DNA of 64,000 nt from a virus (Duplodnaviria; Caudoviricetes), in the IMG/VR virus record IMGVR_UViG_3300025912_000012, positions 71,080 to 135,079 of that record; one strand, 5' to 3'. Under the pieces are notes generated by a model. It searched no databases. It saw only the letters and a program-made list of their open reading frames with translations, and was not told where the DNA came from. Positions 313-60,400 of this stretch are shown piece by piece. A program made the position numbers and the translations under genes. Position 1 is the stretch's first letter; each line of letters begins with the position of its first letter.

Positions 313-384
313 GGTCCCATCGTCTATGGGTTAGGATCCGAGGTTTTCACCCTCGGGGACGGAGTTCGAATCTCCGTGGGATCA
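313..384 (+). tRNA. tRNA-Glu(TTC)
   Basis: Cloverleaf; anticodon arm CCGAGG-TTTTCAC-CCTCGG; TTCGAAT T-loop. Confidence 0.92.
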
Positions 385-385
385 C

Positions 386-457
386 GCCGACATGGTGAAC
401 TGGCTATCACGCGTCTCTCATAAGGACGAGTATCTCGGTCGATACGAGATGTCGGTA
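386..457 (+). tRNA. tRNA-Met/Ile2(CAT) with atypical T-loop
   Basis: Anticodon arm CGTCT-CTCATAA-GGACG; T-loop GTCGATA. Confidence 0.8.
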
Positions 458-474
458 CGCAGGAAGGAAGGATC

Positions 475-693
475 ATGAAGCAGCACATCTGGTGTCTCGT
501 TGACCGGTTCACGAAGCTGACAGACGAGATGAACGAGCTGAAAGAGCAGACCCGGGAGCTGTCCTCGGAGAGGGATCAGGTTGCCCTGGAGATGACCCTC
601 ACGGGACTGCACCTGCGGGAACTGGGGAAGATGTGCGGAGTGAGTGCCCCGCTGATCTGCCGCCTGGCACAGAAAGCCAGGAATAAGATTTGA
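475..693 (+). CDS. small coiled-coil/HTH protein
   Basis: SD-like AAGGA; C-terminal LRELGKMCGVSAPLICRL resembles an HTH. Confidence 0.65.
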   Translation: MKQHIWCLVDRFTKLTDEMNELKEQTRELSSERDQVALEMTLTGLHLRELGKMCGVSAPLICRLAQKARNKI

Positions 694-729
694 CACCGGC
701 TGCTGCTGGGTGTAGGGTTTAAACATCGA

Positions 730-803
730 CGCGGGTTGGAGAAGCTAGGTATCTCGCTGGGCTCATAACCCAGAGGACCCCGGTTCGAATCCGGGACCCG
801 CTA
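730..803 (+). tRNA. initiator tRNA-fMet(CAT)
   Basis: C1 mismatched; three G-C pairs in anticodon stem (CTGGG-CTCATAA-CCCAG). Confidence 0.92.
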
Positions 804-840
804 CTGGACCTGGGGTATGTCTGTAAACTGCCCCGAACTT

Positions 841-913
841 TGGCCTCTAGCTTAACTGGCAGAGTCACTCCCTGTTAAGGAGTTCGGTCCCGGTTCGAAT
901 CCGGGGGGGTCAG
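841..913 (+). tRNA. tRNA-Asn(GTT)
   Basis: ACTCC-CTGTTAA-GGAGT; canonical T-arm. Confidence 0.92.
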
Positions 914-954
914 CGGATCGGGGTATATGGTTCCGCCCTGCCCCGGTCACCAAT

Positions 955-1026
955 GGTCCTATAGTGAAGCGGACATCACATCGCCCCGTCAAGGCGATAG
1001 CCCGGGTTCAACTCCCGGTAGGATCG
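955..1026 (+). tRNA. tRNA-Asp(GTC), C33
   Basis: TCGCC-CCGTCAA-GGCGA; T-arm GGTTCAACTCC. Confidence 0.9.
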
Positions 1027-1160
1027 CTGGGGGAACAGTGTGGCACTGGTTAAAAAAGTACTCGTATTGTGTAGTTGCCACTGTCCCTACTGTCTCCCCA
1101 GAGGCGGAACGCATTGCGGTGTCAGCAGTAACGGATGTCCCGTAAGATGAAGGAACTGAA

Positions 1161-1349
1161 ATGATGCTTGCAGACAAACTGAACTCACCTGCCCTCACGG
1201 CTGTCGGGTTTTCTCTTACGGTAATTGCCTCAGCTTGTGTCGTGATTGCCTCAGCGCGGCTATTCGGGCTGCGGGGACTGCTAGTCTCCAGTGGCTTGCT
1301 GGCAATCGTAGCGCTTATCATGGGTATTATAGTTGCAGGACACAACTGA
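1161..1349 (+). CDS. small membrane protein (2 TM)
   Basis: SD-like AAGGA; two hydrophobic segments. Confidence 0.6.
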   Translation: MMLADKLNSPALTAVGFSLTVIASACVVIASARLFGLRGLLVSSGLLAIVALIMGIIVAGHN

Positions 1350-1354
1350 ATTCC

Positions 1355-1425
1355 GGGTGACTAGCTCAATGGGAGAGCACTGGCTCGACAAGCCAGGGAT
1401 AGGGGTTCAATTCCCTTGTCGCCTA
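1355..1425 (+). tRNA. tRNA-Val(GAC), C33
   Basis: CTGGC-TCGACAA-GCCAG. Confidence 0.9.
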
Positions 1426-1426
1426 C

Positions 1427-1508
1427 GGGGATGAGAAGGGTTCGACTAGCCTTAAAGCCGGTGATGCCGGAACTGGCTAGGACTCCGGTTCGACACCGGG
1501 CATCTCCA
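1427..1508 (+). ncRNA. tmRNA tRNA-like-domain-only RNA (mini-tmRNA)
   Basis: 5' GGGGATGA..GGTTCGAC; 3' GGAC-T-arm-CATCTCCA; G3.U70 and A73; stemless D-loop; short capped helix in place of the mRNA domain. Confidence 0.75.
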
Positions 1509-1561
1509 CGGGTCCGGGGGTTAGCTTCAAAGGATTTTGTGGTTAGGTTCTGGACTTTCAT

Positions 1562-1634
1562 GCACCCGTCGTCTAAAGGACTAGGATAACGGCCTACGAA
1601 GCCGTTGATGGAGGTTCGATTCCTCTCGGGTGTG
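1562..1634 (+). tRNA. tRNA-Arg(ACG)
   Basis: ACGGC-CTACGAA-GCCGT. Confidence 0.92.
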
Positions 1635-1653
1635 CGCAAGGAAAGGAAAAGAA

Positions 1654-1851
1654 ATGATAGCGGTACTGATAACTGCGGTAGCATTCTGCGGTACCTTGTA
1701 TGCGACAGTCCATCCTGGTCCGCTGCACGGGTTTTTTCACCCCGCGCACTATTCCACAGGGAATGCCATAGCACAGGTCAGCTACGCGCTGATCATCGGG
1801 GCGATTGCTTACATGATTGACAGGAGATTCTCGCGGAGGCGAAGAAGATAA
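1654..1851 (+). CDS. small membrane protein
   Basis: Two hydrophobic segments; basic C-terminus RRRRR. Confidence 0.6.
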   Translation: MIAVLITAVAFCGTLYATVHPGPLHGFFHPAHYSTGNAIAQVSYALIIGAIAYMIDRRFSRRRRR

Positions 1852-1854
1852 TAC

Positions 1855-1926
1855 GGTCGATTAGCTCAGCGGCAGAGCAGCGCCCCTACAAGGCGCGGCG
1901 CGGGGGTTCGAGTCCCTCATCGACTA
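1855..1926 (+). tRNA. tRNA-Val(TAC), C33
   Basis: GCGCC-CCTACAA-GGCGC. Confidence 0.9.
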
Positions 1927-1984
1927 CGAAAGTCCTGGTTAACTTACATATCACGTGTTCGCTTGCACTCCAGGGCTTTCTCAT

Positions 1985-2057
1985 GGCGGGTATAGCACAA
2001 TGGTAGTGCGCTGGACTGTGAATCCGGTTATCCGAGTTCAATTCTCGGTATTCGCCC
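1985..2057 (+). tRNA. tRNA-His(GTG)
   Basis: G-1/C73; CTGGA-CTGTGAA-TCCGG. Confidence 0.92.
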
Positions 2058-2072
2058 GAGTAAGGGGGAGTT

Positions 2073-2201
2073 GTGAGGATTCTAGGGAGACGCAGGGAAC
2101 AAAAGTGTTCCCTTTGCAGGATAAGGCGTCGCATTAAAGGTGCGACTATTTGTTCTGTATGCTACAATAAGTCGGTCGGGACTTCGGTTAGGAGCAAGTA
2201 A
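2073..2201 (+). CDS. 42-aa basic CxxC...CxxC microprotein
   Basis: SD GGGGAG; MRILGRRREQKCSLCRIRRRIKGATICSVCYNK... Confidence 0.6.
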   Translation: MRILGRRREQKCSLCRIRRRIKGATICSVCYNKSVGTSVRSK

Positions 2202-2242
2202 TGCATCGATATTATCCGGGTCAGTACACCTCGCGCTGACTC

Positions 2243-2322
2243 GCCGGATCTTGCACTGGGATGCTCGATTGCCTGTAAAGCAATTGCCTCTGGCTAGACA
2301 AGTTCGATTCTTGTATCCGGTA
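2243..2322 (+). tRNA. tRNA-Tyr(GTA)
   Basis: ATTGC-CTGTAAA-GCAAT; long variable arm. Confidence 0.85.
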
Positions 2323-2323
2323 C

Positions 2324-2479
2324 GTGGGTAAAGTCCTCAGTTTTCCGCCAAGATGCCCGAAATGCAAGGCTCCCCCGCGAAGAGCAATAGGGAGTCAGAG
2401 CACCGGGCTGATCATCTATACTTGCTCGGGCAAGGATAGGCATAAATGGAATAAGACGTTCACCAACCTAACCAGATAG
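2324..2479 (+). CDS. 51-aa Zn-ribbon-like microprotein
   Basis: CPKC...YTCSGKDRHKW. Confidence 0.5.
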   Translation: MGKVLSFPPRCPKCKAPPRRAIGSQSTGLIIYTCSGKDRHKWNKTFTNLTR

Positions 2480-2745: not shown

Positions 2746-2817
2746 GCCCCCGGTGACGGACTCGCCTCGGAGCTTCCGAAGCTTTGATGTCTGGTTCGAC
2801 TCCAGACGGGGGTACCA
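2746..2817 (+). tRNA. tRNA-Arg(CCG), degenerate D-arm, encoded CCA
   Basis: GGAGC-TTCCGAA-GCTTT; T-arm TCTGG-TTCGACT-CCAGA. Confidence 0.75.
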
Positions 2818-2906: not shown

Positions 2907-3116
2907 ATGATACTGGCAGCACAGACAGCACCGCTCGATACGTTTGATTATGTTGCCGCAACCGTCTTGTTCTGTCTCGGATGCGTCGGGCTACTGATCT
3001 GTTTCCTTTCGGAGGGATTCCGGAAGAAGCTGGGACTGGGCATTCCCGGGGGGAGTATCACGTTCGTCCTCGGGTGCCTGACCCTCCTCGGGTTGTGTGT
3101 CTTCCTTCTCCGCTAG
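2907..3116 (+). CDS. small membrane protein
   Basis: SD GGAGG; two TM segments. Confidence 0.65.
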   Translation: MILAAQTAPLDTFDYVAATVLFCLGCVGLLICFLSEGFRKKLGLGIPGGSITFVLGCLTLLGLCVFLLR

Positions 3117-3184
3117 CCCCCGATTGCGGATCTTTCACCGGGTTTCCTAAACCTGGCTGCCCGGTTCGACTCTGGGCGGGGGTG
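3116..3184 (+). tRNA. tRNA-Arg(CCT), degenerate D-arm
   Basis: CGGGT-TTCCTAA-ACCTG; T-arm CCCGG-TTCGACT-CTGGG. Confidence 0.75.
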
Positions 3185-59273: not shown

Positions 59274-60041
59274 CTATGCCAGGAGGAAGCTCATCAGGGC
59301 TTCCCCTTCTTTCACGTCCACGAGCGGGGTCTGGTTAGCGCGGGCAGTCGCGTCATCCACCGCCGCGATCACCATATCAAACCGGTCCATCAGCTCCCGC
59401 TTCCGCGAGGGATAGACCGCGCCAGACAGGGCAACCGACTGGTAGTGTCCCGTGGGGATGGTGTCCTCGATTGCCTGGACCTGGGGCGCGTGCTTGTCGT
59501 TCCCCTGGTGCAAGACAAGGGGAACGACCTTCTTGGTGCTGCTCACGCGGGTTTCCATGTCAGCCTTGTACACGTGAGAGTCCCCTGCGGTCCAGTTCTT
59601 CGTCGGGTCGAGGACAGGCAGGACCGCGATGAACTTGCGCCACTCGGACAGGTACTTGCCCAGCCACAGCAGGTGACTGACTGGGACGTTCGCAAGCAGT
59701 ACCGTCCCGTCCGGGAGGACGACATCCGCGTTCGCGTCCTGGTTGGTACGGTCGTTGGTGGCAACCGCGTCCAGCGCCGGGATCGCGTACTCCATTGCCT
59801 GGCGGAGCGCGTCAGGAACAGTCAGCGCAACCTGCTTGTTAACGTCAGGCTGCGTCCCGAGGAGCATGCCCCTGCGCTGTTCCTCAGTCAGCTCCTCAAG
59901 CGGGTGGTGAATTTTCACCAGACCCGTGGTCAGGGATTCGTTCTGAACCCTCTTGATCATTTCCTTCCCGAAATCGTTATCCCGGGCTCGGATACCCGTG
60001 ATCGTGGAAACCAGCTGGGAAAGCGTGCGTGCGCGTGCCAT
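59274..60041 (-). CDS. conserved hypothetical protein (actinomycete family; DUF7873-like from memory)
   Basis: A.ADV..DG.VLL..VPV..LL.L.K.L....F...LPVLD; KHAPQV; SGA. Confidence 0.75.
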   Translation of the reverse strand: MARARTLSQLVSTITGIRARDNDFGKEMIKRVQNESLTTGLVKIHHPLEELTEEQRRGMLLGTQPDVNKQVALTVPDALRQAMEYAIPALDAVATNDRTNQDANADVVLPDGTVLLANVPVSHLLWLGKYLSEWRKFIAVLPVLDPTKNWTAGDSHVYKADMETRVSSTKKVVPLVLHQGNDKHAPQVQAIEDTIPTGHYQSVALSGAVYPSRKRELMDRFDMVIAAVDDATARANQTPLVDVKEGEALMSFLLA

Positions 60042-60099: not shown

Positions 60100-60400
60100 A
60101 AAGTGTTTTGTCACAGCTTCACAGGCTGATGCGAATTGCGGTTCGCTGACAAGCCCGTCACTGTCATCGGCGGTCGAGGTGCGTCTGTCTTGTCTCGAAG
60201 CGTCCTAGCCATTAGACCAGAGGACGATGAGCCGTCCCCGGGGGATTCGAACCCCCATCTCAGTGAGTTGCGCACCTGCGGTAGATATGACAGCACAGGC
60301 TGAGCTTAGGCTTTAAGCGAGCAGTCTTCGTCTTTCTCCGCGCAGCTGCATAGTGAGCTTGGCGGTTCTGGTCTTAGACTTCGGCTTCGGCTTGCGCTCA
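60100..60400 (-). ncRNA. ~300-nt ncRNA: hexamer-repeat leader + permuted tRNA-like (Y RNA/YrlA-like) domain
   Basis: T-arm, loop-closed acceptor stem, then D-arm; long closing stem; own promoter. Confidence 0.75.

Follow-up and report, generated by a model that had tools for sequence, protein, structure and literature searches.

The window analysed here, a 64,000-nt stretch of phage DNA (positions 71,080 to 135,079 of IMG/VR record IMGVR_UViG_3300025912_000012), was confirmed to carry, at positions 1427-1508 (+), a genuine 82-nt tmRNA gene that consists of the tRNA-like domain (TLD) only and that is devoid of a tag. Trans-translation, a drug target, is the main pathway by which bacteria rescue ribosomes and perform quality control. 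By analogy with the single experiment reported for this type of RNA, we favour, with a probability of about 0.6, a role of this mini-tmRNA as a decoy or inhibitor, which would compete with the host tmRNA for SmpB and thereby lower tagging.

Anatomy of the gene

The following features were delineated in the gene and on either side of it (window coordinates).

1355..1426 (+): tRNA-Val(GAC), called by ARAGORN and by RF00005 (62 bits); discriminator A at 1425, then a single C at 1426
1427..1508 (+): whole mini-tmRNA, 82 nt to discriminator A73; RF00023 global match and family model R1
1427..1433 (+): acceptor stem, 5' strand GGGGATG; G1429 provides G3 to the alanine identity pair G3:U70
1434..1445 (+): D-loop analogue AGAAGGGTTCGA, without a D stem, ending TTCGA; RF00023 consensus alignment
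1446..1451 (+): P2 stem, 5' strand CTAGCC, pairing with 1475-1480
1452..1457 (+): 5' internal loop TTAAAG, A-rich; the long-form family consensus at this place is (U)AAR
1458..1470 (+): closing hairpin CCGG-TGATG-CCGG; predicted folds
1471..1474 (+): 3' internal loop AACT; predicted fold
1475..1480 (+): P2 stem, 3' strand GGCTAG, pairing with 1446-1451 (6 bp)
1480..1483 (+): GGAC connector, typical of tmRNA; RF00023 alignment
1484..1500 (+): T arm TCCGG / TTCGACA / CCGGG; RF00023 alignment
1501..1508 (+): acceptor stem, 3' strand CATCTCC, and discriminator A73 (1508); T1505 is U70
1562..1635 (+): tRNA-Arg(ACG), next gene of the array; ARAGORN and Rfam

The two acceptor strands, GGGGATG and CATCTCC, pair at 7 of 7 positions; in the alignment to the Rfam consensus of tmRNA, G1444 and A1445 face A1482 and G1481, forming non-canonical pairs. 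In a full tmRNA, the place of the hairpin at 1458-1470 is taken by the tag frame, with pseudoknot 1 before it and pseudoknots 2-4 after it. The fold of 1427-1508 contains this one small hairpin and none of the pseudoknots PK1-PK4, and no anticodon arm with a 7-nt loop was found in the predicted folds, where the hairpin loop measures 3-5 nt. CCA is absent from the gene, since the bases after 1508 are CGG. The initial annotation, made from the letters of the sequence, had described tmRNA ends with G3:U70, A73, a stemless D-loop and GGAC, enclosing a TAGCC/GGCTA stem, an internal loop and a CCGG-TGATG-CCGG hairpin, the whole starting 2 nt after tRNA-Val. All of these elements are indeed present, the ends being recovered in the RF00023 alignment as well as in the sequence, while P2 is more precisely a 6-bp stem (CTAGCC/GGCTAG) and the distance of 2 nt, counted from the discriminator at 1425, corresponds to a spacer of one C (1426).

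Distinction between a tmRNA head and a tRNA

The tmRNA model RF00023 matched 1427-1511 globally, over model positions 1-374, with 48.9 bits and an E-value of about 1e-16, 19 nt standing for 308 model positions of the full tmRNA in this alignment. Such a match is no proof by itself, because the score is borderline with respect to the cut-off of 47 bits (it drops to 40.4 bits in a shorter slice) and because the model cross-matches tRNA-Ala, giving 37.9 bits to the genuine tRNA-Ala of phage Lacusarx. The tRNA model RF00005 showed no match at the mini-tmRNA, even at E <= 10, while it matched 28 tRNAs of the same array, and ARAGORN called neither a tRNA nor a tmRNA at 1427-1508. The check by ARAGORN and tmRNA covariance models, which had been proposed at the outset, was thus borne out by RF00023, whose score of 48.9 bits exceeds the cut-off, but not by ARAGORN.

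A family covariance model, named R1, was built from 89 minimal forms. It attributed 71.1 bits to the mini-tmRNA and 68.9 bits to the minimal form of mycobacteriophage DS6A (see below), 24-29 bits to true tRNA-Ala (the phage's own and that of Lacusarx), and at most 32 bits to 3' tmRNA fragments and full tmRNAs of cultured phages. The silence of RF00005 and ARAGORN, together with 71.1 bits versus 24-29 bits in R1, identifies the mini-tmRNA as a tmRNA head and not as a tRNA, and the resemblance greatly exceeds what chance would give. Its gene order is standard and not permuted. The mitochondrial tmRNA model RF02544 found nothing at the locus, its sole match in the genome lying elsewhere with 12.7 bits, and models of permuted or two-piece tmRNA (RF04321 tmRNA_permuted, RF01851) reached at best 13.1 bits in the 135-kb record, for a cut-off of 47.

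As a side observation, the best RF00023 match in Sphingobium phage Lacusarx (KY629563 64000-73000) was the tRNA-Ala mentioned above, at 37.9 bits. One tmRNA, "possibly counteracting host tagging", is mentioned in the publication on Lacusarx, a phage of 130 kb, but RF00023 and ARAGORN gave nothing besides cross-matches to tRNA-Ala in the tRNA array and its surroundings.

Absence of a message in the gene and in the record

The TLD halves are separated by just 33 nt, and neither a resume codon nor a tag frame with a stop was found in the mini-tmRNA. The insert does contain a 10-codon frame ending TAG, located within P2 and the hairpin; it was rejected as a hidden tag frame, being absent in the nearest relative and unconserved in the family. 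In 12 of the 76 members of the long form, DS6A and the nearest relative among them, the insert lacks any stop, and no insert frame ending in the Ala-Ala typical of tags was found among these 76. No second standard tmRNA (RF00023) is present in the 135-kb record, and a separate tag-coding piece was rejected as well, with no standard or permuted tmRNA elsewhere in this record. The RF00023 alignment, R1 and the frame check therefore agree with the original reading of this gene as a tRNA-like domain only, without tag frame, pseudoknots or anticodon loop. In the absence of the whole mRNA-like domain, the mini-tmRNA cannot template a tag.

Another tRNA-like module was noticed at window 60202-60259 (-), upstream of a 255-aa ORF (59274-60041), with the order T arm, closed acceptor-like stem, D arm. 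It matches YrlA (RF02553) weakly, with 17.5 bits for a cut-off of 69, and cyano_tmRNA with 10.9 bits. This module may represent a Y-RNA-like RNA of the phage, and it was rejected as a coding piece of a tmRNA.

Genomic context

The 135-kb IMG/VR record, estimated to be 88% complete, carries an 11-kb tRNA array on a single strand (record 62429-73403; locus L131 2430-13403), with 35 tRNA genes covering most amino acids and many small ORFs between them. The 3' part of this array corresponds to window 313-2323 and includes the mini-tmRNA. Because one C separates tRNA-Val(GAC) from the mini-tmRNA, these two genes are probably co-transcribed neighbours. The tRNA genes inspected in the array, including tRNA-Val(GAC), have no encoded CCA. 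Two ordinary tRNA-Ala genes stand elsewhere in the array, so that the mini-tmRNA is no substitute for tRNA-Ala. No SmpB, peptidyl-tRNA hydrolase, RF-1/ArfB domain or CCA-adding enzyme was found to be encoded in the 135-kb record, and processing, CCA addition, charging and protein partners must therefore be provided by the host. As to the host of the phage, the terminase matches phages of Proteobacteria, Actinobacteria and cyanobacteria with 29-36% identity at best, and cultured phages yielded no BLAST match to the region.

Several unusual tRNA-like sequences were observed in the same part of the window. The segment 2819-2889 (+) has a selenocysteine-tRNA-type fold, with a 6-bp D stem, a 4-nt loop, a 6-bp anticodon stem and the anticodon GCA (Cys); Rfam tRNA-Sec gave 40.8 bits for a cut-off of 47, and ARAGORN and RF00005 were silent. 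Two non-canonical tRNA-like genes, at 2746-2817 (+) and 3116-3184 (+), have in common the acceptor stem GCCCCCG/CGGGGGT; their T arms are normal and their D arms poor, and the anticodon loops would read CCG and CCU (Arg); the former is followed by an encoded CCA, and neither was called at threshold by ARAGORN or Rfam. Lastly, 386-458 (+), called tRNA-Met(CAT) by ARAGORN and abutting tRNA-Glu, had no RF00005 match at E <= 10 and a weak fold (z = -1.7).

Relatives and environmental sequence runs

A terminase search yielded six related contigs, of which just one is large (87 kb, with a terminase 77% identical). This related phage, IMGVR_UViG_3300024284_000007, carries a 78-nt mini-tmRNA (locus L148 1501-1578; 60.6 bits), and both phages have the gene order Val(gac), mini-tmRNA, Arg(acg), Val(tac), His, Tyr, with Asp preceding Val(gac). 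In this relative, the P2 strands CGGGCTG/CAGCCCG and the T stem strands CAGGG/CCCTG differ from those of the window and still pair. Its T loop, CTCGGTA, is unusual, the common form being TTCGANN, and 114 nt lie between tRNA-Val and the mini-tmRNA, versus 1 nt in the window. The initial annotation had recommended a hunt for homologues in phage tRNA arrays, and had allowed for a unique deletion, with relatives carrying a full tmRNA at this place. The hunt was fruitful, with this 78-nt copy in the tRNA array of a related phage and at least 119 viral contigs in a pattern scan (see below), and the nearest relative that was found has the minimal form at the syntenic site, with no full tmRNA, so that the case is not a unique deletion.

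Independent DNA runs from soil and rhizosphere contain 69-100% of the sampled words of window 1000-2400; the contigs of two DNA runs examined over this interval do not span the mini-tmRNA itself. Two rhizosphere metatranscriptome runs contain 46% and 32% of the words of the same interval. The contigs of the RNA libraries (contigs and not reads) cover the small ORFs at 1040-1394, 1645-1863 and 2043-2343 and not 1395-1644, and a DNA run shows the same gap. One contig of a rhizosphere DNA run joins 1165 to 1503, with one side of 36 nt, skipping a small ORF, tRNA-Val(GAC) and most of the mini-tmRNA; it is possibly a strain variant in which this segment is lacking or replaced.

A phage-borne family under selection

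A first pattern, which required two TLD halves 15-45 nt apart and nothing else, retrieved five more viral contigs, and a looser pattern retrieved at least 119 viral contigs with such RNAs. Applied to one genome each of 185,579 prokaryote species, the same looser pattern retrieved 10 contigs, all of them metagenome-assembled. The mini-tmRNA family is almost entirely phage-borne.

This family is, moreover, a real RNA under clear selection. Covariation was evaluated in 100 distinct members aligned to the family model, with slid partners as the control. Standard pairs occupied 97.5% of the pair cells in the 100 members, versus 41-59% when slid; cells changed on both sides amounted to 599, versus 71-85; and the covariation score was 0.764, versus at most 0.13, in agreement with RNAalifold. 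Changes on both sides were found for 13 of the 19 pairs in the 100 members, and compensatory changes affected all three helices: acceptor pairs 5 and 6 covary (GC, CG, AU, UA), 6 of the 7 pairs of P2 changed on both sides, and the T stem has 100% of its cells paired, with 4 of its 5 pairs covarying. The invariance of the invariant positions is no evidence in this respect, because the search pattern fixed them.

Members fall into size classes which differ in P2. A plain hairpin is found in the class of 63-69 nt, and P2 is closed by a 12-nt A/U-rich loop in the class of 75 nt. The class of 77-82 nt, to which the RNA of the window belongs, combines P2, the (U)AAR internal loop and a GC hairpin of 3-5 bp and varying sequence. 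Most members stand alone, a tRNA lying within 500 nt at 17 of 120 family loci among the matches listed. When the ORFs within 4 kb of 89 family members were clustered, no universal recurrent partner gene was found, the largest groups, at 9 loci or fewer, being DnaB helicase, terminase, SNF2 helicase and unknowns; no integrase was found among the recurrent neighbour genes tested by Pfam. With few tRNA neighbours and no widely recurring gene beside it, the mini-tmRNA is a self-contained module. Candidates for further examples in cultured phages were rejected, the BLAST matches being full tmRNAs (Kumao), 3' fragments (phi30c) or other forms, all at 32 bits or less in R1.

Comparison with known systems

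A phage RNA of this kind had already been published, although barely described, and it is the size of the family which merits attention. An entry "Mycobacterium phage DS6A (TLD only)" appears in the list given by Hudson, Lau and Williams (2014; PMC4131195), and a 2025 tmRNA database paper names no phage example besides DS6A (PMC11915505). In a full-text literature search for mini-, minimal, truncated or tag-less tmRNA, no phage family was found to be described. The novelty suggested by the initial annotation, which had cited mitochondrial tmRNAs without a coding sequence as the only precedent, was accordingly overrated. Both functions that it suggested, sequestration of SmpB and rescue without a tag, had already been put forward for the DS6A form (PMC4131195 and PMC11915505, each citing Mao et al., 2009).

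We located the DS6A gene at JN698994 28478-28560 (tmID 11587 in the tmRNA Website), where it is unannotated and sits alone between gp33 and a DNA pol III gene. The two RNAs are close in size (80-83 nt in DS6A, 82 nt here) and have the same architecture. Each combines an acceptor stem bearing G3:U70 and A73 with a D-loop analogue that lacks a stem and ends TCGAC; P2 has 6 bp and leads through an A-rich internal loop to a small GC hairpin, and the connector G-N-AC precedes the T arm. The gene of the window thus falls within the DS6A type, an RNA of 60-85 nt in standard order in which a short loop or hairpin closes P2 of the tmRNA TLD. Both are phage-borne, CCA is unencoded in both, and their scores are similar (43.2 bits for DS6A versus 48.9 here with RF00023, and 68.9 versus 71.1 with R1). 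They differ in sequence outside the conserved core, including the connector (GCAC in DS6A, GGAC here), and in location, since the DS6A copy lies between protein genes whereas the present one follows tRNA-Val by 1 nt within an array of 35 tRNAs. The phages also belong to different lineages, the source being here soil or rhizosphere.

With respect to standard one-piece tmRNA (RF00023; e.g., mycobacteriophage Bxz1, or Kumao with 407 nt), the tRNA-like domain aligns from end to end, but the mini-tmRNA has no resume codon, no tag frame closed by a stop and none of the pseudoknots 1-4. An alanine tRNA, or a minihelix, has in common with it the 7-bp acceptor, G3:U70, A73 and the T arm, but the mini-tmRNA has neither a D stem nor an anticodon arm, and it is not matched by RF00005. 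A 7-bp acceptor that carries G3:U70 and A73 and stacks on a T arm is the minimal substrate of alanyl-tRNA synthetase. The tmRNAs of jakobid and oomycete mitochondria (RF02544), together with plastid forms of about 65 bp, also consist of the tRNA-like domain alone, without a tag frame (PMC11915505). These organellar forms are, however, usually circularly permuted and presumed to act with a dedicated imported SmpB, whereas the mini-tmRNA gives no RF02544 match, is viral, has the standard order and presumably acts on the system of the host.

Proposed function and alternative readings

From a mechanistic point of view, the mini-tmRNA would be cut from the transcript of the tRNA array by host RNase P and 3'-end enzymes. 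Its CCA would be added by host enzymes, as the phage encodes no CCA enzyme and as its tRNA genes are also devoid of CCA. Host alanyl-tRNA synthetase would then charge it via G3:U70 and A73, and the charged RNA would bind host SmpB and EF-Tu. As it supplies no message, it would be a competitor of host tmRNA, both for SmpB and at stalled ribosomes, and degradation-tagging would drop during infection. The decoy model is favoured since it is the direction indicated by the single experiment on record for RNAs of this type. According to Hudson, Lau and Williams (2014), a molecule similar to the DS6A form strongly inhibits tmRNA, whether or not it can be charged, perhaps by titrating SmpB (PMC4131195, citing Mao et al., 2009). 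The database paper likewise reports inhibition of the endogenous tmRNA of E. coli, a heterologous host, by the DS6A form (PMC11915505, citing Mao et al., 2009). Pure titration may nevertheless be too simple, because a TLD-only RNA can accept a nascent peptide in vitro (Shimizu and Ueda, 2006, as described in PMC3895274).

A second reading is tag-less rescue, which we regard as rather unlikely. The alanyl-mini-tmRNA, with host SmpB and EF-Tu, would enter the stalled ribosome and take over the nascent chain, after which the peptidyl-RNA would drop off or be hydrolysed by host factors, releasing the ribosome, with phage proteins gaining one alanine and no degradation tag. Such a rescue would help when host nucleases yield many broken mRNAs during infection. 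All the determinants for charging and delivery are kept, and they covary; peptidyl transfer to a truncated, TLD-only tmRNA does occur in vitro (PMC3895274); and mitochondrial tmRNAs devoid of a tag frame have been conserved along with SmpB, a remaining role on incomplete mRNAs being assumed for them (PMC11915505). However, there is no known route by which a peptidyl-TLD could leave the P site when no stop codon is present, and the phage has no peptidyl-tRNA hydrolase and no ArfB-type release domain. Moreover, the DS6A form is reported to inhibit trans-translation and not to replace it, even when it is unchargeable (PMC4131195).

A bolder version, which we hold to be unlikely too, would make of the mini-tmRNA an active counter-measure of the phage, either as a tag-less rescue device which would keep ribosomes active when abortive-infection nucleases of the host give rise to non-stop complexes or as a decoy for SmpB-like defence proteins, the size classes (63-69, 75 and 77-82 nt) being perhaps tuned to hosts or targets. 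A target altogether outside trans-translation is more improbable still: the RNA would act as a decoy for a defence or RNA-processing protein (CoCoNuT SmpB-like domains, or a tRNA/tmRNA nuclease), or as a non-ribosomal donor of alanine. Defence systems with SmpB-like OB folds, which are predicted tmRNA binders, do exist (PMC11090510), and this reading fits with the almost entirely phage-borne distribution of the family and with the isolation of most of its members (a tRNA within 500 nt at 17 of the 120 loci, among the matches listed). Against it, no recurrent partner gene was found beside family members, nothing in the window points to such a target, and the conserved features are exactly those that AlaRS, EF-Tu and SmpB use.

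Lastly, a non-functional relic, i.e., a decayed tRNA-Ala, a tmRNA pseudogene, an attP-type fragment or the assembly collapse of a full tmRNA, is hardly credible: ssrA-integrating phages do carry 3' fragments of this gene, one of them beside an integrase in Streptococcus phage phi30c, and RF00023 can cross-match tRNA-Ala (37.9 bits), but both acceptor strands are present here and pair at 7 of 7 positions, compensatory changes affect all three helices in 100 members, a syntenic copy exists in a related phage, 69-100% of the sampled words of the surrounding 1000-2400 recur in independent DNA runs from soil and rhizosphere (the contigs of two DNA runs missing the gene), fragments and full tmRNAs score 32 bits or less in R1 versus 71 for the present gene, and no integrase was found among the recurrent neighbours tested by Pfam.

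Significance for phage biology

In the literature searched, DS6A is the one phage for which an RNA limited to the head of tmRNA, the part that binds SmpB and AlaRS, is on record. With 82 nt, the RNA described here is small enough for direct biochemistry, and its family offers predicted natural minimal ligands of SmpB. This mini-tmRNA device is common in uncultivated phages and clearly selected, and phages may therefore manipulate the rescue of ribosomes on a wide scale.
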